This document shows, one piece after another, positions 10,716-58,742 of a stretch of 58,780 bases of DNA. A model generated the notes under the pieces. The model was given only the letters and a program-made list of their open reading frames with translations. It did no database searches and had not been told where the DNA came from. The stretch lies in the NCBI GenBank assembly GCA_042570605.1, contig JBHPGK010000002.1, positions 1 to 58,780 of the forward strand, read 5' to 3'. The position numbers and the translations under genes were made by a program. This DNA comes from Candidatus Zhuqueibacterota bacterium (GTDB taxonomy: Bacteria > SM23-31 > JBHPGK01). Each line of letters starts with the position of its first letter. Position 1 is the stretch's first letter.

Positions 10716-11399
10716 TTATTCGACATTGTCTGCATCCGGATTATTTTTCTTAAAAAGGTTTTTGGCAATAGGGGCAAATCCAATAAGAATAAGGATAACA
10801 AAGATAATCAAAAGCAGGTAATCAGGAATATTTATTACGTAGCCGAGTAATGCCAGTAAATAAAATCTGGGAGTCCTCGATAAAAAAACTGCAAGCAGGT
10901 ACATTTTAACCGGATATTTTGCCAGTACAACGAGGAAACGCATAGGATAAAACGGGACTGGTGTAAATCCTGCAATCCATAATGCGGCAAAAGGGAACTT
11001 GTTAAAAAGCTTTATCAGTTTTTCAGTAAATTTATTTTCCCGAAGTTTAAGAAAAAGCTTAATATCGGCAAAATACTCAAAAACGGAATAATTTAATGCT
11101 TCTGTAAGAAGAGTCCCGGCCACTGATACGACTGCAATAATAAATGCCGAATAAAACTTGCTGAAATAAAAAAGAATAGGTTCATGCGGAACGATTGCGA
11201 TTAAAAACTCAGCCGGGAAACAGTATAAAAAGAGAACCCATAGATTTGTACTTTTTTTTATTGTTCCTGAACTCAGCCAGATAAAAAGCAGGACGGCAAC
11301 AAAAGCGATCTCCAGGATTACTAATGCCGTTTTGATATTAAAAGAGGCTCTTTTCCCAATCAGGTTATAGTCTTCTTTAGGATTCTTGTTTTCGACCAT
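10716..11399 (-). CDS. Polytopic membrane protein, possibly VTT/DedA-YqaA-like
   Basis: 227 aa with about 5-6 hydrophobic helices. A VPHEP-type motif after TM2 and a basic RTPRF segment resemble the YqaA/DedA (VTT) family. It lies in the same strand run as the radical SAM and CDP-alcohol transferase genes. Confidence 0.35.
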   Translation of the reverse strand: MVENKNPKEDYNLIGKRASFNIKTALVILEIAFVAVLLFIWLSSGTIKKSTNLWVLFLYCFPAEFLIAIVPHEPILFYFSKFYSAFIIAVVSVAGTLLTEALNYSVFEYFADIKLFLKLRENKFTEKLIKLFNKFPFAALWIAGFTPVPFYPMRFLVVLAKYPVKMYLLAVFLSRTPRFYLLALLGYVINIPDYLLLIIFVILILIGFAPIAKNLFKKNNPDADNVE

Positions 11400-11434
11400 T
11401 AAAATAACAAAGGAATTTATATTTGCAAATATCC

Positions 11435-12400
11435 TTAGATATTCAAATTATCCCTGATTAAATAAAAGGCTGGTTTTTCGGTATTGGCACGGATGCTTGT
11501 ATTACAATATGTACACGTATTTGTTTTTAAAAAACCTTCAACAAGCTCCTCTTTAGTATTAAAACTGCCGGCAATCAAGCCGCAGGGAGAAAGTGTTCCG
11601 TCCGGATTTATTATTAAAAACTTTTCACCTGTACGGCAGTCCGGGATAGACTCATTCTCAAAGAATTCAACAACCTTTCCAAAAACATATTTTGAAGTGA
11701 ATACAGTATTATATTTCTTTTTAAACTCAAGAAGTTTATTTATCATTTCCTTCAGTTCCGGAATTTCCTTTTTCGGTATAAGATAGTCTTTCTTATGAGT
11801 TCTCAGCCATGTATAAGTGCTGAAACTCACCTTCACACCCCACTTATATGCAAACTCTGCAATGTTCATTAGTTCTTTGTAATTATACGTGTGTATCACA
11901 CATGCAAGTGTTATTCTTTTGCACTTTTCATCTTTAACAGATTCAAGAAGATTAACAATCTTGTTATACAGACCCGGGATCCCGCGGAAATCGTCATGGC
12001 GCTCATCAGGATAATCAAATGACACAGAAAATTCATCAACACCGGCATCTACCAGTTTATCGTATTTTTCCCTGTTAAGCAGGGCTGCATTAGTTGTAAG
12101 AACTACCAGAGGTACATTGTTTGGGTTTTTAATTGCTCTGATTACCTCTTCAAGGTCCTGTCTTAATAGAGGTTCACCACCGGATACCTGTGCAACAACA
12201 GGTTTTATCTGCCTGCAAATTTCCCGGTATTTTTCCGGAGCTGCCCTTACCTCATCTTTGATCATACCGCCAAGATGGCAGTGTTTACATTTTGCGTTGC
12301 AGCTGTATGTTGTTTCAAAGGAGACACAAAGAGGTTTTTTTGTGATGTAGTTTTTAATTCCCCTGTTAATTAATGCAGTGTATTGAATAAATTTACTCAT
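11435..12400 (-). CDS. Radical SAM enzyme with a C-terminal auxiliary Cys cluster (SPASM/twitch-like)
   Basis: CNAKCKHC (Cx3Cx2C) at residues about 34-41, a GGEPLL glycine-rich SAM motif, and C-terminal CRTG...PCG...CTYC cysteines. Its start overlaps the upstream gene by 8 nt. Confidence 0.8.
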   Translation of the reverse strand: MSKFIQYTALINRGIKNYITKKPLCVSFETTYSCNAKCKHCHLGGMIKDEVRAAPEKYREICRQIKPVVAQVSGGEPLLRQDLEEVIRAIKNPNNVPLVVLTTNAALLNREKYDKLVDAGVDEFSVSFDYPDERHDDFRGIPGLYNKIVNLLESVKDEKCKRITLACVIHTYNYKELMNIAEFAYKWGVKVSFSTYTWLRTHKKDYLIPKKEIPELKEMINKLLEFKKKYNTVFTSKYVFGKVVEFFENESIPDCRTGEKFLIINPDGTLSPCGLIAGSFNTKEELVEGFLKTNTCTYCNTSIRANTEKPAFYLIRDNLNI

Positions 12401-13025
12401 TCCTGTTGATCTCCACGGTTTGATTAGCGTATTTACTCGACGCCTTTTTTCTTTTTTGTAATAAAATGTAAACAGAATAACTTTTTACCCCCACCAGACA
12501 GCATGCCAGTAAAGTTGAAATAGCTATCATACCGGGCAGAAAAATCACAAGAACTGCAAAAAGTGTTGAGTTAACAAATTTACCTACTTTACTGAAATTC
12601 AGCAGATGCACAGTTTTGTCTACTTTGAAAAAATAATCGGGTGAAATTATGTCATACTTGTTAAACTGATAACCCAGATAAAAATCTACAAATGCATAAT
12701 CCATTAGATAGATCAGAACCGGCAGATAGAGTTCGGAATTGAAATGAAGCAGGTTTACATAAAAATAAATAACTTCTATTCTATCCGCGATTAAGTCTAT
12801 TTCTGCTCCTAAAATTGTCTCCTGTTTGAAAAGTTTTGCACATGCACCATCTATAAAATCCCCGATAAGATGAATTCCAAATCCAATTAAGTTATAAGTT
12901 GGATTTTGCTCGATAACTGCCATCGTATAAAATGTTATCGACAGAACCAGCCTGATTAATGTAATAAGATTTGCTTCCGTCAAATAGGAATCGGGTGTTC
13001 TTGATTTAAATATTTTTCCGGGCAT
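12393..13025 (-). CDS. CDP-alcohol phosphatidyltransferase family protein
   Basis: DFIDGACAKLFKQETILGAEIDLIADR fits DGx2A(R/K)x8Gx3Dx3D. 210 aa with multiple TM helices. Confidence 0.8.
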   Translation of the reverse strand: MPGKIFKSRTPDSYLTEANLITLIRLVLSITFYTMAVIEQNPTYNLIGFGIHLIGDFIDGACAKLFKQETILGAEIDLIADRIEVIYFYVNLLHFNSELYLPVLIYLMDYAFVDFYLGYQFNKYDIISPDYFFKVDKTVHLLNFSKVGKFVNSTLFAVLVIFLPGMIAISTLLACCLVGVKSYSVYILLQKRKKASSKYANQTVEINRNE

Positions 13026-13183: not shown

Positions 13184-15064
13184 TTATCCCATGATTCTGA
13201 AAGCAATTTTTCCTTTTGAATAAATTGTAATTTTTCCGTCAAGTTCGACGACCAGGCATACTGCGTTTGTCAAATATGACATTTTTGCAGCTATATTATA
13301 CCTGCTCGCCTTGCTTATCTCAATTTCAGGATCCTTTATTTCCGGGGGGCGCAAAAAGGTCATACCCTGTTTAATATTTCCAATATTATCGATTATTGCC
13401 GCACCTTTTCTTGAAAACAGCTGAAGTAAAAAGTCTGAGGAATATTTCTTTATATATTCCTCTTTACACTTAACAAAACTTTTAGACAAATCAGCGTATT
13501 TTAGAATATTCTCATGATCACCAACCGTAATAAAAGTGCCTTTGCCTTCATCAGAAATTTTATATGCTTGTTTTAATAAAAACGATAAAATATCACTATC
13601 CACAGAATGCTTTTCAGCAATAAAATTGATACCTTTTTTAATATCACAAGGATGAATATGCCACGTCGCGCGCTGGTGGGATAAGATCCTTTTACCCTTG
13701 AAAAACATTTTAATTCTTCCGTTTCCGTCAAAAAGCAATAACAGTCCATTAGTCAATGCTGAAGCTGTTGCCGGTTTCAGGTATTTTTCAGGGAGAAAAC
13801 TTTCGACTTCCGGGCTATCCTCCTTAAAAATAAGGCTTCCAACTAATTCACCGTTTGACTTCAAAACAAAAGAACCAACATAACCGCTTACAATTGTTGA
13901 TGAGGACACCACAGCATCCAATGAATTCAGGATATTTCCCGGGCAAGATAAGATCACTCTCTGAAAAGCGCTGTTATCGGACTTACCTTCAGGGATTATT
14001 AATATTGAAGTACAGATACTTTTGTTATCACGCTCCCTGTATTTTAATCTGTCGATCAGATCTATTAACCGTGACAGCACATTCTCTTTTATATTCAATT
14101 CATCAAGTATAGGTGCGAGCACAAGAAATATTGATGACAAACGAAATTCGTTAAAGATCTTTACAGCAACTTCTGAAGAGAACCGGTATTTATCAAGCTG
14201 AATATTTTCCTGAATAACACGTTTTTGAGATGTCAGAAATGTTCCGTTTTTTAAATCATAATCATGGGTAATAAGGTTTTCCGGATCAATATAAGTTTCT
14301 CCCCTTGGCAATAGAGGTTTCCAGTCCGCTTTATATGACCAGAAAACCGGCAGTGTATTAGTAGGTGTACTGTAAAAAAATCCTACCAGCAGTTCACTTG
14401 AAGCATAACCAAATGGATGATCCGGGAATAAGTGTTTACCGTATTTCTGCAGGATATTTCTGGCGTGGACTCTTTCTTCGGTTATTTCAAATATCCGGGA
14501 ATCTTCAGCAAAAGGCGATTCGGAGGATAATACCTTATCAGCCACTATTATTTTAAATTCTGTATTTTTATGAAGATATTCTATGCCGTTCTCATAACCG
14601 ACCAATGCTGCAAAAATTATATTGGATTGTTTTTCATGAGATACAATTGGCGCTATTATTTCACGCCACAGCGCTGCTGCCTGATGTCCGGAGCCAATAA
14701 AATCGTCGATAAAAACTATTGCTGAGTCTTTTCCTGTTTTCAGATTTCTAAAATCTTCGGTTGATATAAATTGGGAAGCTTTCAGGTTATTACGGTTTTT
14801 ATAAAAATAAGCAACGACTCCCCCGCTTTTTGCAACATATCCAACTGGTACAAACCGGATCTTTTCAGACGTCATTCCAAGAAAATTAGTAATATTATTA
14901 TGCAGTACATGGACCAGTTTGTCAACTTTTTTTGGACTGTAATATTTAAAATGTGTCAGCAGCTTGTTTATTATCGGACGTTCCTCTTCCTCAAACTGGT
15001 TTAACCATGAAACAACAGTTTCTTTTTTTACATCGCCATCAAATAAACTCTGGATTTTGTTCAT
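13184..15064 (-). CDS. Uncharacterised 626-aa protein: N-terminal PRTase-like domain plus two degenerate DAC (DisA_N)-like modules
   Basis: AIVFIDDFIGSGHQ is a PRPP-loop-like motif (residues about 115-128). C-terminal blocks KGTFITVG / RKGAAIID / SRYNIAAKMS...CLVVELDGKITIYSKGK follow the order of DAC-domain blocks, but the catalytic DGA and RHR residues are replaced. A weaker earlier copy spans residues about 330-470. Confidence 0.4.
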   Translation of the reverse strand: MNKIQSLFDGDVKKETVVSWLNQFEEEERPIINKLLTHFKYYSPKKVDKLVHVLHNNITNFLGMTSEKIRFVPVGYVAKSGGVVAYFYKNRNNLKASQFISTEDFRNLKTGKDSAIVFIDDFIGSGHQAAALWREIIAPIVSHEKQSNIIFAALVGYENGIEYLHKNTEFKIIVADKVLSSESPFAEDSRIFEITEERVHARNILQKYGKHLFPDHPFGYASSELLVGFFYSTPTNTLPVFWSYKADWKPLLPRGETYIDPENLITHDYDLKNGTFLTSQKRVIQENIQLDKYRFSSEVAVKIFNEFRLSSIFLVLAPILDELNIKENVLSRLIDLIDRLKYRERDNKSICTSILIIPEGKSDNSAFQRVILSCPGNILNSLDAVVSSSTIVSGYVGSFVLKSNGELVGSLIFKEDSPEVESFLPEKYLKPATASALTNGLLLLFDGNGRIKMFFKGKRILSHQRATWHIHPCDIKKGINFIAEKHSVDSDILSFLLKQAYKISDEGKGTFITVGDHENILKYADLSKSFVKCKEEYIKKYSSDFLLQLFSRKGAAIIDNIGNIKQGMTFLRPPEIKDPEIEISKASRYNIAAKMSYLTNAVCLVVELDGKITIYSKGKIAFRIMG

Positions 15065-15100: not shown

Positions 15101-17539
15101 CTATTTCTTGTTTTTTACATACTTTTCAAGCCAGTTGTACGTTTCCCAGAGCATATGTAAAACAGATTCTCTTGCTCTGTATCCGTGGCTTTCATGAGGC
15201 AGCATGACCAGCCTGACCGTTGCCCCGTGTCCCTTAAGAGCGCTGTAATACCTTTTACTTTGAATTGGGAAAGTACCCGAATTGTTGTCGGCTTCCCCAT
15301 GAATAAGAAGTAATGGTTCATTAACTTTTTGAGCGTGCATAAACGGAGACATGGCAAAGTAGATTTCAGGCGCTTCCCAGAAAGTTCTTGATTCATTTTG
15401 AAATCCAAAAGGCGTAAGTGACCGGTTGTAGGCTCCGCTTCTTGCTATACCTGCAGCAAAAAGGTCGGAATGAGCCAGCAGATTTGCAGTCATAAATGCA
15501 CCATACGAATGACCTCCGACTGCTACTCTTAGAGGATCGGCAGCACCTCTGCCTGCAACAGCATCAATTGCAGCTTTACCGTTTGCCACAAGCTGCTTTA
15601 TGAAGGTATCGTTTGGTTCTGTATCACCTTCTCCTATAATAGGCATTTCCGCCCCGTCAAGTACTGCATAACCCTGTGTAAGAAATAACAAGATAGATGT
15701 CGGGCTTAGTCTGGTAAACCTGTATTTTGATCCTCTTACCTGTCCTGCAGCTCTTGCACTCTTGAATTCTCTTGGGTATGCCCATATCAACAGTGGTAAT
15801 GGACCTTGATCCTTTGTGTAACCGGCTGGAAGATATAAGGTGCCTGTTAAATCCAATCCGTCATCACGTTTATATTTTATATATTCCTTATAAATATCTT
15901 TCATTTGGGGAAACGGATGGGGAAAATCTGTAATTTGTGTGGTTTTATTATTATTTAAATCCCTGATAAAATAATTAGGAGGTTCTTGGGTAGACTCCCT
16001 GCTTGTGATAAAAATTTTACCGTTTTCACTTATTAAATTTACAAAATTTTCATAGTACGGGGCTTCACACTGCCACAAACGTTCGGTTTTTTTTGTATTC
16101 AGGTTCATTTTATCAAAAAATGGGAAACTTCCCTCCGGGGATGAGCCGGAACCTGACAGATATATATTATCGTTCTTATCTTTTAAAAGAACCCTTCTGG
16201 CATATTTGTTCTGAATGGTTAGAGGACTTCCTGGATCAGAATACGTGTCTTCAGTCGAACGGTCAAAAAGAAGTTCAGGTTTTGCGTCCGGATTGCCGGG
16301 ATTGAAAATCCATGTTTTTGTTTTGCGGGACGGTCTCCAATTCTCGGTTGCCAGTGCAATTTTTTCATTACACCAGGTAATGCCTCTGTATCTGAGATTT
16401 AATGAAACAAGTTCTTTTGGACCGCTGTCAAAAGGAGGTTCAAGAAAATATACTTTATCTCGAAATTCTACTTTTTTCTTTGGATCGCCTTCATCCTGTG
16501 CCTCTACATAATATAAAGTTGAAGGAACATCGGCACGCCAGCTGAAATTACGAGGTCCCGGTGTTGTTGAACCGGAACCTAAAGGTACTTCTTCCATCAA
16601 TGGTATATCAGCAATTTTCCGGATCAATCTGCCCATCATATCCCAGACTTCAACAGAATGCGGAAATCTATATGAAGGAACAATATAGGAAAATGGGTGG
16701 TGAATGATGTTAACCAGAATATACTTTCCATCCGGAGAAACTGAAAGATCAGAAAAAATGCCGGTTTCGCCGATTTTATTTATTTTACCGTCTACAGTTA
16801 CCTTACAAATACAGGACGCAAAATAATATTCAAAGAGTTTTTCATCGTAAGAATTTTTCAGGAGGTCCTGATATGTCCAGGCAGGAGCAACTTTTCCAAT
16901 GTTCTCCTGTACAGTAGGTCCGGAGGGGACTTTTGGTATTTCAGGTGGATCATTCCTGTCCGAAGACACAAATTTACATAAAATTGTCCTGCTGTCCGAA
17001 GTCCACTCTATTGGAGAACCGAATGTCCCGTTTAAAACAGGTTCCGTGAGTTTTTTAGCAGTAAAATTTTCTATTTCAACAATCCATAATTCAATGCCTG
17101 AATCAACCGTGTTGGTAAAAGCGATAAACTTACAGTCGGGTGACCAGAGAATACTTCTTCCACCATATCTGGAAACTTGACCGATTTGTGGATTTTCAGG
17201 AAGACCTTTAACAGGGTATTCTTTGTTACTCGTCAGGTTTTTCAAAATCAGGTTCTTAAAATGAGATACCCTGCTTTGACCATTGATCGCCGGATTTATC
17301 CTGTGACCTGCAATTCTAAATTCAGGCTGCGCAAGTTCTTTAATTGCCGGCAGACTCCGGCGTTCCATGATCAGCATCCATTTTGCATCCGGGCTGAATC
17401 CTACTGAAGGTGTGACAGGTGCATCCACAAGGTCAACTATCTCCTTTGGAGGTGTCATGTATTCGGCAGATTCCTGCGGAAAAGAGGATATAAATGAACA
17501 TAAAATTATAATTACTGAAAAAACATATATCTTTTTCAT
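15101..17539 (-). CDS. Secreted S9-family serine peptidase (prolyl oligopeptidase / dipeptidyl-peptidase type) with an N-terminal beta-propeller
   Basis: Signal peptide. GGHSYGAFM (GxSxG nucleophile), HGEADNN (Asp) and ESHGY (His) appear in canonical S9 order. A long propeller-like N-terminal region carries TolB/WD-like repeats. Confidence 0.85.
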   Translation of the reverse strand: MKKIYVFSVIIILCSFISSFPQESAEYMTPPKEIVDLVDAPVTPSVGFSPDAKWMLIMERRSLPAIKELAQPEFRIAGHRINPAINGQSRVSHFKNLILKNLTSNKEYPVKGLPENPQIGQVSRYGGRSILWSPDCKFIAFTNTVDSGIELWIVEIENFTAKKLTEPVLNGTFGSPIEWTSDSRTILCKFVSSDRNDPPEIPKVPSGPTVQENIGKVAPAWTYQDLLKNSYDEKLFEYYFASCICKVTVDGKINKIGETGIFSDLSVSPDGKYILVNIIHHPFSYIVPSYRFPHSVEVWDMMGRLIRKIADIPLMEEVPLGSGSTTPGPRNFSWRADVPSTLYYVEAQDEGDPKKKVEFRDKVYFLEPPFDSGPKELVSLNLRYRGITWCNEKIALATENWRPSRKTKTWIFNPGNPDAKPELLFDRSTEDTYSDPGSPLTIQNKYARRVLLKDKNDNIYLSGSGSSPEGSFPFFDKMNLNTKKTERLWQCEAPYYENFVNLISENGKIFITSRESTQEPPNYFIRDLNNNKTTQITDFPHPFPQMKDIYKEYIKYKRDDGLDLTGTLYLPAGYTKDQGPLPLLIWAYPREFKSARAAGQVRGSKYRFTRLSPTSILLFLTQGYAVLDGAEMPIIGEGDTEPNDTFIKQLVANGKAAIDAVAGRGAADPLRVAVGGHSYGAFMTANLLAHSDLFAAGIARSGAYNRSLTPFGFQNESRTFWEAPEIYFAMSPFMHAQKVNEPLLLIHGEADNNSGTFPIQSKRYYSALKGHGATVRLVMLPHESHGYRARESVLHMLWETYNWLEKYVKNKK

Positions 17540-23472: not shown

Positions 23473-26400
23473 ATGCTAAGTATACACAAAAGGATTTGTG
23501 TCCTGTTCGGCATTTTTGTATTCTTTTCCCCCTCCCTAATTTTTGCTCAGAAATGGACTACAAAAACTTCTATGCCCACTGCCAGAAGGGATTTAACCGT
23601 AAGTGCAGCAGGAGATAAAATTTATGCAATCGGTGGTTTAACACCTTCTTATCAATACAGCACAGCTAATGAAGAATATGACCCTTCTTTAAACAGCTGG
23701 ACATCAAAAGCATCAATCCCGGTATCATATTATTATTTAAAGAGTGATACAGTTGGTGGTAAAATATACGTTGTCGGGAGAGAAATCCCCATATCTGTAT
23801 ATGAATATAATCCATCAACAAATACCTGGACTGCAAAAAGCGGTACGACATCCGACAGAAGTGAATATTCTCTCGCTTCCGCAAACGGGAAGCTGTATAT
23901 ATTCGGAGGCTACGATAACAACCAGACCCTCGATACTGTCGAAGAATATGACCCTGTATTAGAAACATGGACCACAAAGACATCCATGCCAACTCCAAGG
24001 TCAGGGGCTGCCGCAGTGGCATACAATGGAAAAATATATCTGGTTGGTGGAGAAAGAACAGTAGGATTCATTTCAGTATTTGTTGATTCGGTTCATGTTT
24101 ATGACCCGGATACAGATAGTTGGGAAGCTAAAGGACCAATTCCAACATCCAGAAGGAATCTGCAGGCGCAGGTTGTTGACGGGAAGCTTTACGCAATAGG
24201 TGGTTACTCAGAAAGCTATGAATCCACCGTTGAAGAATTCGATCTCGTATCTGAAACCTGGGCTGTTTCAGACACAATGCTCACTGCAAGAGAATCTTTC
24301 GGTACAAGCATTGTGAATAACAAAATATATTCTGTTGGAGGTATTGGAGGTGCCAGTTCTTCAATATTATCAACAAATGAAGAATTTAATCCTGCAAATC
24401 CGCATGTACCTTTAGGGCTTACTGCTGTGGCTGATGACGGGGAAGTAAATCTTATCTGGAACAGCAATACAGATACGGATATTCTGCAATATAACATATA
24501 CAGAAGTACGACTAACGGTTTTTCACCTGTACCCGGCGATTCCATCGGGAGATCTTTCCATCCGGATACTACTTATACTGATAATTCAGTGAATAATGCT
24601 ACCACGTATTATTACCGTGTTGCTTCTATTGATTCAAATTTTAATATGAGTGATTACAGCAACCAGGTAAGCGCAACACCAAGAGATACGATACTACCTG
24701 ATGCTCCGGCTAATTTAGCTGCTCAGCCTGATTATGAGATAGTAACACTCACCTGGGATGCTAACTCTGAACAGGATCTAGATTATTACCAGATTTACAG
24801 AAGTCTGATACCGGGCTTTACTCCATCTGTTTCAGATTCAGCCGCAATAGTTCTGAAACCGGCTACTTCTTATATAGACAGCTTTTTAACTAATTACCAG
24901 ACCTATTATTATGTGATCTCGGCTTTTGACAGCAGCGGTAATGAGAGCAGTTTCAGTTCAGAAGTAAACGCAACACCATTTGATTCAATAGCTCCGGCGA
25001 TACCACAGAATTTAACCGCGACCGGTCAGCACCACCAGGACAGTTTACACTGGAATTTTGTATCCGATGCTGATCTTTATTATTATAAAATATATAGAAG
25101 CCAGACAGGCGGATTCACACCTTCATCATCTGATTCAATTGGAATTATTTTAAAACCGGATTCAACTTATATAGATACTGTAGTAATTCCCGGGCAGACT
25201 TATTATTACATAGTATCAGCAGTCGACAGTAATTTTAATGAAAGCGGCTTCAGTAACGAAGCTTCAGCAGTACCGATTGATACATTAGCCCCTGGAATAC
25301 CTCAAAACCTTGCGGTCACAAGTGGAGACAGGTTCCTGGATTTAAGCTGGGATTCCAATGCTGAATCGGATATGTTTTATTACACGATTTATAAAAGCAG
25401 GACAAACGGCTTTACACCTTCCTCCTCTGACTCAATTGCAGCAATTGTTTTCCCGGATTCAACTTATAGAGACAGCACCGTTCTTGTGGATTCCACCTAT
25501 TATTACGTAATAGCTGCAGTTGACAGTTATTTTAACCAGAGTGATTTCAGTGCTCAGGCATCCGGAGTACCTTATGATTCAACCGGACCTGCTGCTCCGC
25601 AGAACCTGACGGCAACCGGCGGTCAGGACCATATAGCTCTCGTATGGGATCCAAATACGGAAAATGATCTCTTAAAATATATTATATACAGGAATACAAG
25701 CTCCGGTTTCAATCCCTCATCTTCAGACTCAGTTACCGTTGTTTTCTACCCGGATACAACATACAATGACAGTTCAGTAATAAACTACACCACTTATTAC
25801 TATAAGATCGCAGCAGTTGATAGTTTCAACAATATAGGTACATTCAGCAATGAAGCGAGTGCTTCATCATTTGACACTTTAGCTCCGGCTGCACCCCAGA
25901 ACCTCGCAGCATCAAGCGGCAACAAGCAGGTCGATCTAATATGGGATCAGAATACGGAACCTGATATGCTTTATTACGTAGTTTACAGAAGCCTGAATAA
26001 TGGTTTCACGCCGACTTCAGGTGATTCGATCGGGGTGGTTACATTTACAGATACAACATATACAGATAACAGTGTATTTAATGATATAACATATTACTAT
26101 AAAGTCGCGGCTGCAGACAGTTCGTATAACTATAGTGATTTCAGCAACCAGGCTTCTGCAACACCTGCTCCTGTAACAGATTATACATGGCAGACAAAGT
26201 CTCCGATGAATAATGCGAGGTCAGGTCCCATTTCAGGTACAATAAACGGAAAAATATACACTGTTGGCGGGTGGACCGGTGCTGCAAGAACACCGGTGGT
26301 TGAAGAATATGATCACGAAACCAACACCTGGGCTGCAAAAACTTCCATGATCTCAGACAGGGAAGATTTTGGAGGAGATGTTCTTGATGGACATTTATAC

Positions 26401-28608
26401 ATAGTCGGTGGCAGAACCAACGGCACAAGATATACCACAGTTGAAGCTTATATGCCGGAAACAGACAGTTGGAAAACCGTTCCTTCAATGGCTAATGTAA
26501 GAAGAGAACTCGCTGTAGCGACAGCCAACGGGAAATTATATGCGATCGGCGGCCGTGAAGGAGGTCCGCAGTACAGGGATCATGTTGAAGAATTCAATCC
26601 TGCTGACAGCTCATGGACAACAAAAACAGCTATGACCACAGCAAGGTATGGTCTTGCTGCGGCAGTCGTTAATAATAAAATATACCTTATAGGCGGATCT
26701 AATGCTGCAATTTTAAATACAGTTGAAGAATATGATCCAATCCTCGATCAATGGACGGCAAAAACAGCAATGCCCACTGCAAGAAGATTTCTGACTGCAA
26801 CAACTATTTCCGGAAAAATATATGCTATCGGTGGAGAAAGTGCAGCAGGCAATGTGGATATCGTTGAAATCTATAATCCTGATACCGATTCCTGGACTAC
26901 CGGTGATTCAATGCTGACAGTGAGATACAAACACAGCGCTGCGGCTGTCAATGACGTAAAAATTTATGCTATAGGTGGTACTATTGATGGTGTCAGCTCA
27001 TTTGCTGTTAACGAGGAATATAATCCTCCACCGTGGCAGCCACAGGATCTAACTGCGAACTTTGTCACCCAGCAGATCGAACTTACCTGGACTGCAAATA
27101 TCGAACCTGACCTTAGCTATTACATTGTATACAGAAGCCAGTCATTTGGATTTACACCGGCAGTTGACGATATAATCGGCGAAGCTGCAAGGGATGAAAC
27201 TTCTTTTACAGATACCAATTTTGTGCCGGATACGTCTTATTATTATGTGCTGGCAGCCGTTGACAGCGCCGGACATGAAAGTGTTCTCAGCTCACAGGCA
27301 AGTGTTACTACACCAAGTATTTCTTTTCAACTGGGCATCCCGGATACTCTTCTTACAAATGGTGATACGCTGTCAATGCCTCTGACGTTTTACGGGAATT
27401 TGGACAGCGCAGAAATCTACAGCTTTCAATTTAAAATTTCATACGATTCAAATATATTAAACGGCCTGGAAGTCGACACAAGCGGTTTTGGGAACCCGAT
27501 AACCTATTACACGAATGTCGTTCCGGGCTCATTAAAAGTGGCGGCATACTCTACTGAAAATTTAACAGGAACAAACCGGAGTATGACTCTCACTTTTGAG
27601 GTTGATGACGATGCAGCGAGAGATACAACATATTTAAGGTTTTCCGAGGCATATTTTAATGAAGGTAATCCTGCGGCTGATACATCATCTGCCCGGATAA
27701 GGATAAAACCGAGGTACGGAGACGTTACGGGTGACAGAACTATCTCAGCTTATGATGCATCTTACGTTCTGCAGTATGTTGTCGGACTGCAAAACTTCTC
27801 TCAGGGACAGCTCGAAAAGGGTGATGTTACATATAACGGAGTGGTATCATCTTTTGATGCATATTATATACTGCTAAGGGTGATCGGTTCCATTTCAACT
27901 TTCCCGGTGGAAGACACGCTATTTTCAAAGATATCTTTAGTTCAGAATCCCGATATCGCTTTAAATATTTCAAAAGAAATAAATGAAAGCGAATTAACGG
28001 TTAAAATATCCGCAAATAACGTTAAGAATATTTCCTCTCTATACCTGAACATGGGCTTTAACACATCGGCTCTTGATTATAAGTACAGCGAGTTAGAAGA
28101 AAAATATGCAGACTTCATACATGCTGAAAATTCCGAGAACGGAAATTTCAGGCTGGCTATGGCAGGAGGCAGTCCAATAAAGAGGGATGGAGAAATACTA
28201 ACTTTACGGTTCAATATAAAAGATGAAGAAAGTATAACGGATGAAAATATCCTTATATTGAACATCCTGGAAATTAATGATGCCGTAATTGGTAAAAAAT
28301 CGATCAAAGATGAGACGATCGGATTGCCCAAAACTTATGATTTAAGCCAGAATTACCCTAACCCATTTAACCCGGAAACCAGTATTAAATACCAGCTTCC
28401 GAAAGCATCAAAAGTAATGTTAAAAATATTTAATATCCTGGGACAGGAAGTTAAAACGCTTCTGAATGAGACTAAAAAAGCCGGGTATTATAATATCAAA
28501 TGGGACGGAAGAAACAACCTTGGTTTGAAAGCGGCAAGCGGAATATACATATACAGAATTTCTGCAGGAGAATTTATTAAAACAAGAAAGATGGTTCTGC
28601 TGAAATAA
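23473..28608 (+). CDS. Giant secreted surface protein: Kelch propeller, 6 tandem FN3, second Kelch propeller, FN3, cohesin-like, dockerin, cohesin-like, T9SS C-terminal sorting domain
   Basis: Signal peptide. Two sets of six (I/L)Y(A/V/I)(I/V)GG Kelch blades. Repeated PQNL...W...Y.IYRS...Y.Y.V.A.D FN3 modules. GDVTGDRTISAYDASYVL plus GDVTYNGVVSSFDAYYIL are dockerin Ca-binding repeats. The C-terminal NYPNPFNPETSIKYQLP...IYRISAG...KMVLLK is a Por/T9SS tail. An AGGAG RBS is present. Confidence 0.85.
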   Translation: MLSIHKRICVLFGIFVFFSPSLIFAQKWTTKTSMPTARRDLTVSAAGDKIYAIGGLTPSYQYSTANEEYDPSLNSWTSKASIPVSYYYLKSDTVGGKIYVVGREIPISVYEYNPSTNTWTAKSGTTSDRSEYSLASANGKLYIFGGYDNNQTLDTVEEYDPVLETWTTKTSMPTPRSGAAAVAYNGKIYLVGGERTVGFISVFVDSVHVYDPDTDSWEAKGPIPTSRRNLQAQVVDGKLYAIGGYSESYESTVEEFDLVSETWAVSDTMLTARESFGTSIVNNKIYSVGGIGGASSSILSTNEEFNPANPHVPLGLTAVADDGEVNLIWNSNTDTDILQYNIYRSTTNGFSPVPGDSIGRSFHPDTTYTDNSVNNATTYYYRVASIDSNFNMSDYSNQVSATPRDTILPDAPANLAAQPDYEIVTLTWDANSEQDLDYYQIYRSLIPGFTPSVSDSAAIVLKPATSYIDSFLTNYQTYYYVISAFDSSGNESSFSSEVNATPFDSIAPAIPQNLTATGQHHQDSLHWNFVSDADLYYYKIYRSQTGGFTPSSSDSIGIILKPDSTYIDTVVIPGQTYYYIVSAVDSNFNESGFSNEASAVPIDTLAPGIPQNLAVTSGDRFLDLSWDSNAESDMFYYTIYKSRTNGFTPSSSDSIAAIVFPDSTYRDSTVLVDSTYYYVIAAVDSYFNQSDFSAQASGVPYDSTGPAAPQNLTATGGQDHIALVWDPNTENDLLKYIIYRNTSSGFNPSSSDSVTVVFYPDTTYNDSSVINYTTYYYKIAAVDSFNNIGTFSNEASASSFDTLAPAAPQNLAASSGNKQVDLIWDQNTEPDMLYYVVYRSLNNGFTPTSGDSIGVVTFTDTTYTDNSVFNDITYYYKVAAADSSYNYSDFSNQASATPAPVTDYTWQTKSPMNNARSGPISGTINGKIYTVGGWTGAARTPVVEEYDHETNTWAAKTSMISDREDFGGDVLDGHLYIVGGRTNGTRYTTVEAYMPETDSWKTVPSMANVRRELAVATANGKLYAIGGREGGPQYRDHVEEFNPADSSWTTKTAMTTARYGLAAAVVNNKIYLIGGSNAAILNTVEEYDPILDQWTAKTAMPTARRFLTATTISGKIYAIGGESAAGNVDIVEIYNPDTDSWTTGDSMLTVRYKHSAAAVNDVKIYAIGGTIDGVSSFAVNEEYNPPPWQPQDLTANFVTQQIELTWTANIEPDLSYYIVYRSQSFGFTPAVDDIIGEAARDETSFTDTNFVPDTSYYYVLAAVDSAGHESVLSSQASVTTPSISFQLGIPDTLLTNGDTLSMPLTFYGNLDSAEIYSFQFKISYDSNILNGLEVDTSGFGNPITYYTNVVPGSLKVAAYSTENLTGTNRSMTLTFEVDDDAARDTTYLRFSEAYFNEGNPAADTSSARIRIKPRYGDVTGDRTISAYDASYVLQYVVGLQNFSQGQLEKGDVTYNGVVSSFDAYYILLRVIGSISTFPVEDTLFSKISLVQNPDIALNISKEINESELTVKISANNVKNISSLYLNMGFNTSALDYKYSELEEKYADFIHAENSENGNFRLAMAGGSPIKRDGEILTLRFNIKDEESITDENILILNILEINDAVIGKKSIKDETIGLPKTYDLSQNYPNPFNPETSIKYQLPKASKVMLKIFNILGQEVKTLLNETKKAGYYNIKWDGRNNLGLKAASGIYIYRISAGEFIKTRKMVLLK
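24400..26170 (+). repeat. Six tandem coding repeats of about 295 bp (FN3 modules) inside the giant protein gene
   Basis: Protein-level periodicity of about 98 aa, with recurring blocks (AP..PQNL, W(D/N).N.E.D, YY.IYRS, GF(T/S)PS.SDS, TYYY.(I/V).A(V/F)D) repeated six times. Confidence 0.8.
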
Positions 28609-54263: not shown

Positions 54264-57200
54264 TTATTTTTTCATCGGGATAATAATTCTGAATTCAGAT
54301 CCCTGCCCTAATTCGCTTTTTATTTTTACCATGCCGCCATGTTTTTCCACGATTGCTTGAACAATTGATAGTCCCAGACCTGTACCTCCGACTTCTCTCA
54401 CATATTCATTATCTGCACGGAAAAACTTTTTGAATAGATTTTTCTGGTCAACCTTACTTATCCCAATTCCCGTATCACGGACAATTATTAGCGATTTTTC
54501 CTGAATTGCCTTTAACTCAACTGAAATTTCACCTTGTTTGGTAAACTTTATGGAGTTAGATATCAGGTTAGTCAATACCTGAACAAGCTTATCACGGTCA
54601 CCAATAATTTCAATACCATCTTTAATTTTTGAATCAAAATTCAATCCTTTTTCATCCGCCAAATTATGCATCGTTTTTACAGCATGACTCACCAGGTCGC
54701 TTAAAGAGATTTTTTCGAACTTCAAATCAATTTTACCGGATTCAATTTTCTCTACATCAAGAAGGTCGTTGATCAGATTATTAAGCCTGTCTGAATTCTG
54801 GTAGACAATATCGAGAAACTCCTGCTGAAGTTCATTTATTTCACCTGTATCCCCGGAAAGAATAAGATCAATATAGCCCTTTATCGAAGTCAGTGGAGTT
54901 CTTAATTCATGTGAAACGGTTGAAATGAATTCATTTTTCATTTTATCGATCTCAGCTTCTCTTGATACATCTCTGAAAGAGAAAACACTGCCAATTATTT
55001 TGCCTTCAATGTTTTTCATAGGTGAATTGATCGCCTCGAGAGTAATTTTCTTTCCTTCATGATTTTCAATCGCAAACCGTCTTGATGTTTTCTGACCGCT
55101 GTTTACAGCTTCAAGCATTAGCCCCCTCAAATCGGCAATATTGTCTTTAGAATGCTCATCCATCTTCATAATATCAGTGCAGAGTTGCCCCCTGATCCTG
55201 TACATCGGCAAACCCATCAGATCTGCAAATGCAGGATTAGATGATAAAACATTAAGTTTATCATCGGTAACAACGATCCCGTCTCCAACACTGTTCAAGG
55301 TAATATTCAACTGGCTTGATTTTTCCTGCAGCTTATCTATCAGCCTGTTTCTTTCTTCTTCCCCTCTTTTCCTTTCAGTTATATCTTTAACAATTCCGAC
55401 AAAGGCTGATTTGCTGCCGAATCTCATTTCGCCTACAGCAAGCTCGATGGGGAAAATAATCCCGTCTTTTCTTTTTGCTTTTACTTGTCTTCCAATTCCT
55501 ATAATTTTTGCTTCACCGGTTTTAAGATAATTACTTAAAAAACCATCATGATTGCCGTGATAAGGTTCCGGCATTAAAATATTGACATTTTTTCCTATAA
55601 CTTCTTCCTTATCATAACCAAAAAGCGCCTCAGCGGCAAGATTAAAACTCTCGACAATACCATTATCATTAATAGTTATTACTGCATCCACAAGTGTGTT
55701 TATTACTGTTCTTGTCCTTTCCTCACTTTCTGTTAATTCCTTTTCAATCCTTTTTCTTTCGGTAATATCTTCTGCTACCTTTATAAATGAAGTTATATTA
55801 CCTTCAATGTCTTTAATTGGTGAAATTGATGCAGATTCCCAGTAATGTTCTCCATTCTTTTTCTTATTTATAAACTCTCCCCTCCAGATTTTACCTGCAG
55901 TCACAGTCTCCCAGAGCGGTTTATATTCAGCACTGGGTCTTTCAGTGGATTTCAGTATCCTTGGATTTTTGCCTATTACTTCTTTTTCTTTATACCCGGT
56001 TAAATCCGTGAACTTCGGATTAACATATATAATATTGCCATTAATGTCGGTTATTACAACTGTACTCGGGCTCTGTTCTACAGCGACAGAAAGTTTTCGC
56101 TTCTCTTCTTCTGTTTTTTTCCGCTCTGTATTTACCTCTTCATAAGCAATAAATTTTCCAATACTCTCTGCCATTAATTCTATAATGTCAAATTCATAAT
56201 CCTGAAAAGCCTGTTCTCTTTTAACCGGTGATGAAAAATTCAGTGTACCGTATATTTTACCATTAACAAAAACTGGTGCGCTTATGTAAGATTCAAAATA
56301 TTCATTGGGAAAGATCGGGTGGATCTTGTTCTTATGAACTTCTTTAGCGCTGTTAAAAGCAATAGTTTTTACTTTTGTAACAACTAATTTACAATAAGTA
56401 TCTTTCAGTTCAAAAACAAGTTCGGGTTTTAAAAAATCAAGGTCTGTTTTTGTCGCACGGACCAAATATTCATTTCCTTTTATTTCACTTAATATTCCCG
56501 TCGAAAGATTAAAGATCTTTTTTCCTGCATCCAGATAATCAGTAATAAGAGCATTAAAACTGTCGTATTGGGTAGTAGCTATATTATTTAATATCTTTAG
56601 ATTTGAGCTGTAGTTTTCTAACATATCAGTTTTCTTAATTAACTCATCTTCCGATATTTTACGTTCGGTTATATCCAGATGAGTACCGGTTGCTCTTAAA
56701 GGATTACCTTTTTTATCTCTTTCAAAGACCCTGCCCCGGTCTAAAATCCACTTCCATTCCCCTGATTTTGTTTTCATCCTGTGTTCTGTTTCATAAATTT
56801 CGGTTTTACCCTCAAAATGATCTTTAAGAGCTTTTTCAATAAGAGGTACATCCTCCGGATGATTTAGTTTATACCATGAATCTACATTAGGTATAATTTC
56901 ATCCAGGGAATAACCAAGCATTTCTGCCCATCTTTGATTAAAAACTACTTCACCTGTTTTTATATTCCAATCCCACAATCCGAGATCTGCCCCCTTTAAT
57001 GCCAGTTCAAGTCTGCCCTCACTTTCTTCAAGCGCTTTTTCAGCCTCTTTTCGATGTCTTCTTGTCGAATAACCTTCAATTAAATTAGCACATGTAGATA
57101 AAAACGGTTTAAGATATTCGATAATATCTTCAGAATATCCATCCGGTCTGTTTGCGATTCCAACCATTCCGATCATTTTTTTACCGCTGTAAAAAGGTAT

Positions 57201-58742
57201 CCCCAGAAAACTGTTAAGGGGTGGATGCCCTTTTGGGAGACCGCCGCTCCGGTTGTCTTTTGACGGACTATTTGAGATCACTGGTTTTCCAGAGGTCATT
57301 ACAGTACCGAATAGAGTTTTTAAATTATGAAATTCCATCCCTTTCGGGGCATTTTTTTTATAAAAATCTCTTGTTTCCTTATTCCAGGCAATATTTGTGA
57401 TGGCATGGCTTTTTAAAAAAGGATCACCATTATCTGATAACAGGACCTCGCCAATATAACCATATTCACTTTTTGTCAGGGCAAGTAAATTTTCGAGCAG
57501 TTCATCAAATATATATCTGGGCTCAATTTCTGCAATAAACTTGGATTGAGAACGACTGATAATGTCCAGCATATCATTTCTGGTTTTCAGAAGTACTTCG
57601 GCTTTATTCCTTTCGGTTATATCCCAATTTACTCCAACCATCCGTAAAGGTTTCCCATCATTATCACGCATTACAGTTGCTATGGCTCTAATGGAATGAA
57701 TTGAATCATCAGGCCAAACAACACGGAATTCTGTATCAAAATATTTTTCGCCCTTTAGCGCCATTTCAATTTCCTTCTCACCTGATTCTTTATCATCCGA
57801 ATGTAATCCCTGGACCCAAGCCTCATAGGCGCCTGAGAAATCTTCCTTTTTAACACCATAGAGGTTATACATAGAGTCGTCCCAAACGAGAATATTATTT
57901 TTAACATCCCAATCCCAAATCCCTATTTCTGCTGATCTTGTTGCAAGAGAAAGCCGCTCAGTCAAAAGCTTAAGTTCTTCTTCGGTTCTTTTCCTGTTAG
58001 TAATATCTCTTACTACTACAAGGTCACATTTTGTGCCGTCATCCAGATCAATAATATTTGCATTGACCTCGCCGTTCAGCTTTTCTCCGTCATAACGGAT
58101 AAATTCCAACTCATAAGATCCGACTCCCCTGCTGCTTAAGCGTTCTTTAAAACTCTCAAAGGCTTTTCTTTTATCTTCTTTTGAAAGAAAGGAAACTTTC
58201 ATCAGGTTCTGCCCGATAACATTTGATCTTTCTCCCCCGACAAACTCTGACGCTTTTTCGTTCAATTCTATTATGTTTCCTTTTTCATCAATTAAAATTA
58301 TATAATCATTTGCCTTATTAAACAGACTCTGGTATTTTTGCTGGTTATTTTTTAACTCCTGGTCTATTCTCTTTCGTTCCGTAATATCCCTGGCAATTGC
58401 ATAGATTAAATTCTGTCCGGTTATTGGGATTGCGTTCCATGAGAACCATTTGTATTCTCCATTTTTGCATTTAAACCTGTTTTCAAAAACGATCGCATTT
58501 TCACCTGCAGTCAGGTTTTGAATAACTTTTATCGTTTTTTCTCTGTCTTCAGGATGTACGAACTCGATAAATGGTTTGTCTAAAAGCTCTTCATTAGTCC
58601 AACCGAGAGTCTGTTCCCACGATAAGTTTAAATGCTTGAAATACCCATCTAATCCGGCTATACACAGCATATCAATTGACAGATTAAAGAAATGTTCCTG
58701 AGTTACATTAGTCATGTTTTTTGTTTTTTTTGAATTGCTCAT
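54264..58742 (-). CDS. Cytoplasmic multi-PAS/GAF sensor histidine kinase (1492 aa)
   Basis: Seven PAC-type boundaries (D(I/V)T(E/N)RK…), two GAF-like regions, H-box SHELRTPLTSI, and N/G1/G2 boxes (…GGTGLGLSIV…). There is no TM segment and no receiver domain. Confidence 0.9.
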   Translation of the reverse strand: MSNSKKTKNMTNVTQEHFFNLSIDMLCIAGLDGYFKHLNLSWEQTLGWTNEELLDKPFIEFVHPEDREKTIKVIQNLTAGENAIVFENRFKCKNGEYKWFSWNAIPITGQNLIYAIARDITERKRIDQELKNNQQKYQSLFNKANDYIILIDEKGNIIELNEKASEFVGGERSNVIGQNLMKVSFLSKEDKRKAFESFKERLSSRGVGSYELEFIRYDGEKLNGEVNANIIDLDDGTKCDLVVVRDITNRKRTEEELKLLTERLSLATRSAEIGIWDWDVKNNILVWDDSMYNLYGVKKEDFSGAYEAWVQGLHSDDKESGEKEIEMALKGEKYFDTEFRVVWPDDSIHSIRAIATVMRDNDGKPLRMVGVNWDITERNKAEVLLKTRNDMLDIISRSQSKFIAEIEPRYIFDELLENLLALTKSEYGYIGEVLLSDNGDPFLKSHAITNIAWNKETRDFYKKNAPKGMEFHNLKTLFGTVMTSGKPVISNSPSKDNRSGGLPKGHPPLNSFLGIPFYSGKKMIGMVGIANRPDGYSEDIIEYLKPFLSTCANLIEGYSTRRHRKEAEKALEESEGRLELALKGADLGLWDWNIKTGEVVFNQRWAEMLGYSLDEIIPNVDSWYKLNHPEDVPLIEKALKDHFEGKTEIYETEHRMKTKSGEWKWILDRGRVFERDKKGNPLRATGTHLDITERKISEDELIKKTDMLENYSSNLKILNNIATTQYDSFNALITDYLDAGKKIFNLSTGILSEIKGNEYLVRATKTDLDFLKPELVFELKDTYCKLVVTKVKTIAFNSAKEVHKNKIHPIFPNEYFESYISAPVFVNGKIYGTLNFSSPVKREQAFQDYEFDIIELMAESIGKFIAYEEVNTERKKTEEEKRKLSVAVEQSPSTVVITDINGNIIYVNPKFTDLTGYKEKEVIGKNPRILKSTERPSAEYKPLWETVTAGKIWRGEFINKKKNGEHYWESASISPIKDIEGNITSFIKVAEDITERKRIEKELTESEERTRTVINTLVDAVITINDNGIVESFNLAAEALFGYDKEEVIGKNVNILMPEPYHGNHDGFLSNYLKTGEAKIIGIGRQVKAKRKDGIIFPIELAVGEMRFGSKSAFVGIVKDITERKRGEEERNRLIDKLQEKSSQLNITLNSVGDGIVVTDDKLNVLSSNPAFADLMGLPMYRIRGQLCTDIMKMDEHSKDNIADLRGLMLEAVNSGQKTSRRFAIENHEGKKITLEAINSPMKNIEGKIIGSVFSFRDVSREAEIDKMKNEFISTVSHELRTPLTSIKGYIDLILSGDTGEINELQQEFLDIVYQNSDRLNNLINDLLDVEKIESGKIDLKFEKISLSDLVSHAVKTMHNLADEKGLNFDSKIKDGIEIIGDRDKLVQVLTNLISNSIKFTKQGEISVELKAIQEKSLIIVRDTGIGISKVDQKNLFKKFFRADNEYVREVGGTGLGLSIVQAIVEKHGGMVKIKSELGQGSEFRIIIPMKK

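Follow-up and report, generated by a model that had tools for sequence, protein, structure and literature searches.

A gene in contig JBHPGK010000002.1 of Candidatus Zhuqueibacterota bacterium (GenBank assembly GCA_042570605.1) codes for a single protein that joins a phosphoribosyltransferase (PRTase) of the conflict effector type (PRTase-CE) to two domains with the diadenylate cyclase (DAC) fold. The stretch analyzed here (the window) comprises 58,780 nucleotides, and the gene is an intact open reading frame (ORF) with an ATG start at 13184..15064 on the minus strand, a complete coding sequence of 626 codons plus stop. The reading that we favor, and to which we give about an even chance of being correct, is that of a nucleotide-centered conflict effector contained in one chain, in which a tandem DAC-fold module, itself non-catalytic, controls the PRTase-CE. 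The PRTase-CE would be the enzymatic output, binding phosphoribosyl pyrophosphate (PRPP) and, once switched on, draining PRPP or nucleotide pools until growth is arrested. Control of this output would fall to the two DAC folds as a unit, which in the window protein would act without catalysis, as a switch that takes up a nucleotide ligand and/or promotes oligomerization.

The protein consists of the PRTase-CE domain, a middle DAC fold that we call DAC' (a pseudo-DAC) and a C-terminal DAC-like domain, a layout seen in the ORF list, in full-length homologues and in the full-length AlphaFold2 (AF2) model (predicted local distance difference test score [pLDDT], 85.6; predicted template modeling score [pTM], 0.83). 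A sequence-only reading of the window had proposed the same anatomy, a PRTase followed by a degenerate DAC and a DAC-like module, and profile searches, hhalign and AF2/Foldseek all agree with it, the similarity to PRTase and DAC folds being significant and far beyond chance. The peptides quoted in that reading all lie at the residues given for them, and its spacing of 36 nt to the upstream S9 peptidase is the one in the ORF coordinates, where the gene starts 36 nt past the stop codon of the peptidase (15101-17539). A phmmer search of the whole 626-aa protein against the PDB returned only noise (a nicotinamide N-methyltransferase at an E value of about 1). Membership of the NCBIfam family DS32_1_antiphage was dismissed (23 bits against a cutoff of 250).

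The N-terminal domain (residues 18-254; 14303..15013, minus strand) matches the Pfam family PRTase-CE (PF24390) over positions 2-253 of the 253 in the profile (E value, 1.9e-49; 169.3 bits for a cutoff of 27), and it is also matched by the PADLOC model PRTase_III-A (PDLC02934, the PRTase of type III-A retrons) with an E value of 5.2e-56. PRTase-CE was reportedly defined by Nicastro et al. in 2023 (NAR). The letters CE stand for conflict effector (PMC12871103). The PRPP loop AIVFIDDFIGSGHQ is present in the window protein (DSAIVFIDDFIGSGHQAA, residues 113-130; 14675..14728, minus strand), and its core DDF[IV]GSG is found in every sequence of an alignment of 26 family members, with the DD and GSG positions invariant. 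The motifs PVGYVAKSG, DDFIGSG and GFFYSTPxNT are likewise kept throughout the family. In the Retron-Eco11 effector, the counterpart of this loop is VVILTDTIGSGNQ, which stands together with a Gx14PNNxP signature; mutation of the PRPP motif abolishes defense, and activation lowers cellular PRPP by about 50% (PMC12746101). The signature, which marks PRTases of the retron type, is present in the window protein as G-x14-P(T/N)N-x2-P (GYASSELLVGFFYSTPTNTLP, residues 219-239; 14348..14410, minus strand; identified from the alignment and PMC12746101) and reads G219-x14-P234-T-N-x2-P, the first Asn of PNN being replaced by Thr only in this protein and in its relatives P0002 and P0003. Thus, both the type I PRPP loop placed by the sequence-only reading at about residues 113-130 and the kinship with retron and conflict effectors that it proposed are confirmed, the former by the Pfam match and the 26 loops, the latter by Pfam, PADLOC and the motifs of Retron-Eco11.

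The C-terminal domain (residues 467-626; 13187..13666, minus strand) is recognized by the Pfam family DAC (PF02457) between residues 502 and 619, on positions 6-118 of 119, with 27.4 bits for a cutoff of 27 (E value, 2.8e-6). A family profile made from the C-terminal 160 residues of the 26 members found DisA (9y4s; E value, 2.4e-6) and CdaA (6gyw; E value, 2.5e-6) in the PDB, and Foldseek with the full-length AF2 model retrieved 82 PDB chains at E values of 1e-3 or lower (best, 1.4e-6), the top 50 being all DisA, CdaA or DacM. In this register, the family QDGAT falls on the DGA motif of the cyclases and GSKHS on GTRHR, and in the window protein the corresponding residues are RKGAA on DGA and SRYN on TRHR. 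The degenerate DGA motif is R552-K553-G554-A555-A556 (13397..13411, minus strand; family consensus, Q-D-G-A-T) and the degenerate RHR motif is R588-Y589-N590 (13295..13303, minus strand; K/R-H-S/D/N in the family and R-H-R in its canonical form), both assigned by columns guided by hidden Markov models (HMMs) in the DisA/CdaA register. These columns agree with the earlier assignment of a Lys (K553) to the catalytic Asp of DGA and of RYN to RHR, with Tyr (Y589) in place of His. The readings [RK][KR]GA and S-[RK]-Y-N are confined to the window protein and its two nearest relatives (P0002 and P0003); the other 23 of the 26 aligned members keep [QE]DGA and G-[ST]-[KR]-H, and an HMM-guided census found the Asp and the His in about 90% of some 170 tandem-DAC proteins. 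The description of both DAC modules as degenerate is thus right for the window protein and wrong for the family, in which the C-terminal DAC has decayed only in this three-member subclade. Judging from its motifs, the C-terminal DAC of the 23 relatives may be an active cyclase, and the window protein is predicted to make no cyclic di-AMP (c-di-AMP) and should not be called a cyclase.

The middle domain (residues ~296-466; 13667..14179, minus strand) was found neither by Pfam nor by a sequence profile search of the PDB, and its assignment comes from hhalign, AF2 and Foldseek. BLASTP of residues 270-480 against residues 481-626 gave an E value of 6e-6 over the final beta-hairpin region, and hhalign aligned the profiles of the two domains over 130 columns with a probability of 95.3% (E value, 2e-8). 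When residues 283-466 were modeled alone (pLDDT, 87), the best Foldseek match was BsCdaA (9g0g; E value, 3.8e-6; target-normalized template modeling [TM] score, 0.60) and the top 50 matches were all DAC enzymes. The second, weaker DAC copy suspected from the sequence is therefore real. DAC' never has the Asp of DGA in the family alignment, the residue at this position being variable, and where the C-terminal copy has K/R-H, it has a conserved P-x-R-Y. The window DAC' reads P-E-K-Y (K-Y-L) at the RHR position, and the window C-terminal domain has shifted to the same R-Y state as DAC'. The structural Gly and Ser residues of the DAC pocket are invariant in both halves (G397/G554, G405/G562 and S435/S596), a scaffold that would fit a binding pocket without chemistry. 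Both domains thus resemble CdaA, DisA and DacM in fold (Foldseek E values of about 1e-6 to 4e-6; target-normalized TM score of about 0.6) but differ from these enzymes in having two DACs per chain, KGA and RYN in the C-terminal copy and neither motif in the middle one.

Because the metal-binding Asp is absent and His has become Tyr, neither DAC half of the window protein is predicted to be a cyclase. The three proteins of the subclade are only 52-58% identical, and we compared the proportions of nonsynonymous (pN) and synonymous (pS) differences between them; synonymous sites are saturated, hence pN and pS are given instead of dS. pN is 0.25-0.29 in the PRTase domain, 0.27-0.28 in the C-terminal DAC and 0.36-0.41 in the middle domain, with pS at 0.68-0.84. 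In each of the three domains pN is well below pS, which shows that purifying selection acts on every one of them, and the "dead" C-terminal DAC is as constrained as the PRTase. The subclade is a natural experiment in which the cyclase motifs are gone and the PRPP loop and selection are kept. An output that depended on cyclase activity would not be expected to outlast such losses. With the cyclase residues lost and the PRPP loop and DAC scaffold still selected, the DAC folds would have a non-catalytic role, for example in ligand binding or assembly, and DAC'-DAC of the window protein is most likely a switch without catalytic activity. The idea that dead DAC folds regulate a PRTase effector, already put forward in the sequence-only reading, agrees with these findings and is our preferred model, with the restriction that the DAC is dead in this clade only. 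A cyclase-dead variant that is still selected offers a clean natural test of the DAC fold as a regulatory or receptor module versus an enzyme.

The sequence-only reading had called this protein an orphan, which it is not. We found 28 homologues (30-58% identity) in 5.8 billion proteins, nearly all of them full-length matches with PF24390 and PF02457 and most of them metagenomic, so that at least 28 proteins share the architecture, from Verrucomicrobiota, Acidobacteriota, Bacteroidota and an archaeon. Pfam names existed already for both domains. The family is of rare and patchy occurrence: among 185,579 species-representative genomes, the full architecture is present in four (metagenome-assembled genomes [MAGs] of Verrucomicrobiae, Acidobacteriota and Saprospiraceae and the archaeon Ca. 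Bathycorpusculum), and the PRTase-CE part alone was matched in 67 more. No homologue was found in phage genomes, and plasmids gave matches to the PRTase-CE part only. The PRTase domain alone retrieved three matches in the protein homologue search, and the DAC'-DAC alignment retrieved none although the family exists, a failure that we put down to the word-index limit of the search. Some members carry additional domains, such as an N-terminal NADAR domain (P0011), a TPR insert (P0034) or, in P0028, the effector-associated domain EAD7 at the N terminus (EAD7-PRTase-CE-DAC'-DAC). EAD7 is among the EADs that "primarily recruit other effectors" (PMC7159879). No family member has been characterized so far, and our literature searches found no paper on a PRTase-CE/DAC fusion, with the proviso that Nicastro et al. 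2023 and Galperin 2023 were outside our reach and may mention it.

Outside the window subclade, most family members sit in defense or mobile islands. Among their neighbors are type I restriction-modification systems, ParD, GmrSD, M78/HTH proteins, a ThiF/multi-ubiquitin pair and DruA, together with integrase, reverse transcriptase (RT), resolvase, PrimPol, Y1 transposase and a PD-(D/E)xK protein, as well as a PRTase-CE plus ORC/CDC6-like pair and, directly upstream of one member, an iHD-CE/HD-CE-HATPase gene. An all-against-all BLASTP showed no homology among 16 neighboring genes of family members; therefore, there is no obligate partner and the gene stands alone. Several of these loci have features of their own. 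In the Verrucomicrobiae MAG (L001, 8943-12559), a separate 353-aa PRTase-CE gene precedes P0011, its stop codon overlapping the start of P0011 (10001-10004), and a Y1 transposase, a DUF3631 protein, a helicase and a PD-(D/E)xK plus HTH pair lie nearby. At L007 (7000-11490), what look like two pieces (211 and 64 aa) of a split N6_N4 methyltransferase flank the 975-aa P0023, as if P0023 had inserted into it, in an island that also contains GmrSD, M78/HTH, the ThiF/multi-ubiquitin pair and the PRTase-CE plus ORC-CDC6-like pair. At L011 (1151-5565), the gene for an 818-aa iHD-CE/HD-CE plus HATPase_c_3 protein lies 80 nt upstream of P0016 in the same orientation, and the two could form a two-effector arrangement. 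Finally, at L009 (11388-14018), the other strand codes for an 876-aa Lactamase_B plus Anti-Pycsar_Apyc1 protein some 1.7 kb downstream of P0027.

PRTase-CE and DAC'-DAC are both portable modules. The former is also known alone, from the C-terminal side of STAND/AAA ATPases and in company with an HD domain or wHTH-PRTase_assc, and these fusions support its action as a portable effector. The effector reading is further supported by the EAD7-tagged P0028 and by Lon_C and CHAT as partners of the tandem DAC. We infer an anti-phage role, or one derived from it, for PRTase-CE-DAC'-DAC, and the window copy, which occupies a stable chromosomal position, may have been domesticated. The same cassettes have some bearing on another possibility, a dual-enzyme effector in which the DAC burns ATP (producing pyrophosphate [PPi] and/or a toxic dinucleotide) and the PRTase-CE consumes PRPP or carries out nucleotide pyrophosphorolysis, with the window lineage keeping the PRTase arm only and its DAC folds serving as an oligomerization scaffold. 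The joining of the entire PRTase-CE-DAC'-DAC unit to EAD7 as one cassette would suit such an effector, as would the NADAR fusion and the adjacent second PRTase-CE gene, which fit a multi-enzyme attack on nucleotides, and nucleotide depletion by two enzymes is known from PUA-Calcineurin-CE plus HAD (PMC12871103) and from ShosT, whose PRTase is coupled to pyrophosphatase activity (PMC11961720). However, with one catalytic DAC per chain, a second active DAC would be required to make c-di-AMP, and there is no sign of coupling via PPi. Nor does this proposal explain why DAC' is always non-catalytic or why DAC'-DAC follows PAS and GAF sensors, and we regard it as quite unlikely.

As a unit, DAC'-DAC is far more widespread than the fusion. 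A HMMER search with its profile against 1.84 billion cluster representatives gave 2,042 matches at E values of 1e-3 or lower, 480 at 1e-10 or lower (representative clusters at 50% identity) and 84 at 1e-30 or lower, with both DAC halves matched in one stretch in proteins of many lengths. The partners at the N terminus are zf-HC2 plus Lon_C, CHAT, AMP-binding enzymes, PAS-GAF-PAS, REC, CBS, LRR and FGE-sulfatase, and stand-alone forms of about 350-390 aa also exist. The combination of zf-HC2 and Lon_C recalls RadA, the partner of DisA. A census of DAC architectures has reportedly been made by Galperin in 2023 ("All DACs in a row"). The DAC'-DAC of the fusion is most closely related to the stand-alone proteins P0033, P0036 and P0044 (L085 and L086; about 385 aa; E values from 1e-94 to 1e-110). 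These begin with a Lys/Arg-rich tail of about 55 residues, and no PRTase-CE gene is visible upstream of them on their short contigs. Catalytic motif residues have been lost more than once, independently in P0120, another PRTase-CE fusion, and in a subgroup linked to Lon_C (P0140, P0162 and P0168) that has KGA for DGA and keeps RHR, a recurrent change of Asp to Lys.

Four observations weigh against the conflict effector as we have drawn it. The intact DGA and (K/R)H of the 23 relatives indicate that catalysis probably matters for the family overall. The Thr at the first Asn of PNN means that the PRTase chemistry of the window subclade may also have shifted. DAC'-DAC also follows the sensor domains PAS, GAF, REC and CBS, behind which it looks like an output, and this would place PRTase-CE in the "sensor" position. 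Finally, no defense partner or mobile gene is adjacent to the gene in the window, which is not a defense island. Another possibility is that of a signaling enzyme, in which the tandem DAC would be the output, a cyclase making diadenylate or another dinucleotide, and the PRTase-like domain a sensor of PRPP or nucleotides, as in PurR and PyrR, the window copy being a cyclase-dead derivative that now acts as a receptor or regulator or is being lost. In its favor are the DGA and RH kept by most of the family and of the tandem-DAC proteins, the usual order of sensor then output in proteins with PAS-GAF-PAS, REC, CBS or zf-HC2, and the fact that defense DACs are active cyclases (bioRxiv 10.64898/2026.08.10.743927), DS-2 needing its catalytic residues (PMC13092281). 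Nevertheless, it fails to explain the window protein itself, whose subclade lacks the cyclase residues with all domains still under purifying selection. Every PRTase-CE member has a full catalytic-type PRPP loop, PRTase-CE fills the effector slot in STAND and retron systems, and the presence of EAD7 on one member suggests an effector cassette, so that we consider a signaling enzyme unlikely.

The window protein is a PRTase-CE by profile and motifs, but by its context it is not a retron effector, and it belongs to neither of the two described classes of defense DACs. With the type III-A retron effectors and Retron-Eco11 it shares a homologous PRTase, the PRPP loop xDxIGSGxQ and the G-x14-PNN motif, and by analogy a similar attack on PRPP or the nucleotide pool might be expected. 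It differs from them in having two DAC folds instead of the C-terminal winged helix (there is no Pfam match to wHTH-PRTase_assc), PTN for PNN, no adjacent RT and a chromosomal setting outside an island. Regarding the DACs, mutation of the catalytic residues abolishes the defense by DS-2 (PMC13092281), and two defense classes have been described, DS-2C (DACNG-DACNH-DAC, in CBASS-like operons) and PanS of Panoptoo (a minimal 150-aa DAC with an S2TM-beta effector), as active cyclases that make c-di-AMP or cyclic UMP-AMP (cUA) (bioRxiv 10.64898/2026.08.10.743927). Neither class is a tandem DAC or joined to a PRTase, and the words PRTase, phosphoribosyl, tandem, fusion and fused do not appear in that work (bioRxiv 10.64898/2026.08.10.743927). 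The likeness is that of a DAC in an anti-phage setting, since the relatives of the window protein lie in defense islands. The differences are that the window protein lacks DACNG and DACNH (no Pfam match at E values of 10 or lower) and has no S2TM-beta or CBASS neighbor, and that its putative effector is fused in the chain to a duplicated DAC, one copy of which is always degenerate and the other, to judge from its motifs, catalytically dead in the window protein.

A more distant parallel is provided by SAVED, which arose from CARF and in which two related nucleotide-binding folds form a pseudo-dimer within one chain, beside effector domains. SAVED and CARF, found in CBASS and type III CRISPR systems with Lon, CHAT or TIR effectors, resemble the tandem DAC pairs with Lon_C and CHAT by analogy only; the fold is unrelated, and most tandem-DAC proteins keep the catalytic residues in one half. 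On this analogy, the tandem DAC'-DAC might be a single-chain, pseudo-dimeric receptor of c-di-AMP-type dinucleotides, a dimeric enzyme converted into a sensor, that gates effectors such as PRTase-CE, Lon_C and CHAT, the window protein being a pure receptor form, a proposal that we offer tentatively and hold to be improbable. If true, the window protein would read the dinucleotide pool of the cell itself or one perturbed by a phage and, in response, collapse the supply of PRPP or nucleotides. The role of DACs in anti-phage immunity was shown only in 2026 (DS-2, PMC13092281; Panoptoo, bioRxiv 10.64898/2026.08.10.743927), and PRTase-CE effectors have been studied experimentally in one context, Retron-Eco11; PRTase-CE-DAC'-DAC unites the two themes in one polypeptide. 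If DAC'-DAC proves to be a common module with interchangeable partners (Lon_C, CHAT, PAS/GAF, AMP-binding and PRTase-CE), the annotation of "DisA_N domain proteins" and the counts of c-di-AMP signaling repertoires would change.

In the window, the gene is flanked on one side by the S9 peptidase, a DUF6599 protein and a DUF362 protein and on the other by a CDP-alcohol phosphatidyltransferase, a radical SAM enzyme and a VTT protein. The ORF annotation bears out the absence of typical defense partners reported earlier, and no RT was found beside the gene (noncoding RNAs were not searched for). A conflict or defense setting is seen for most relatives and for the EAD7 fusion, and not for the window gene and its two syntenic relatives. 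The three motif-degenerate genes (in the window, L003 and L013) are each directly downstream of an S9 peptidase, and L003 has the order of the window (DUF362, DUF6599, S9, PRTase-DAC gene, DUF169). Between the PRTase-DAC gene and DUF169, the window has a cluster with the CDP-alcohol phosphatidyltransferase, radical SAM and VTT/DedA genes (10716-13025, minus strand) that is absent from L003 and looks like an inserted lipid-modification cassette.

This conserved position could also reflect a domesticated housekeeping role, the gene product being a chromosomally encoded regulator or enzyme in the homeostasis of purines, PRPP or c-di-AMP and perhaps tied to the S9 peptidase. The gene order has been kept in three genomes despite the low identity of the PRTase-DAC proteins, mobile and defense genes are not nearby in the window, and this clade alone has lost both the first PNN Asn and the cyclase motifs. 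On the other hand, the spacing to the S9 peptidase is not kept (36, 126 and 290 nt in the three loci), and sequence change has been quicker in the PRTase-DAC protein (52-58% identity) than in the peptidase (64-69%). In reference genomes, the S9 orthologues most similar to the peptidase come from Aminicenantes MAGs (55-56% identity); no PRTase-DAC gene lies downstream of them, which makes the gene accessory even in the window lineage. Since the other relatives are, moreover, patchy in distribution and mostly island-borne, we think it very unlikely that housekeeping accounts for the gene, and a conflict effector with a non-catalytic DAC switch remains the reading that we prefer.

As for the rest of the window, a tRNA scan found none in it. 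Two very large ORFs are present, of 1711 aa (23473-28608, plus strand) and 1492 aa (54264-58742, minus strand). The window also codes for RND efflux components, a Ser/Thr kinase with TPR and a GAF-SpoIIE phosphatase, a gene content that fits a diderm chromosome.

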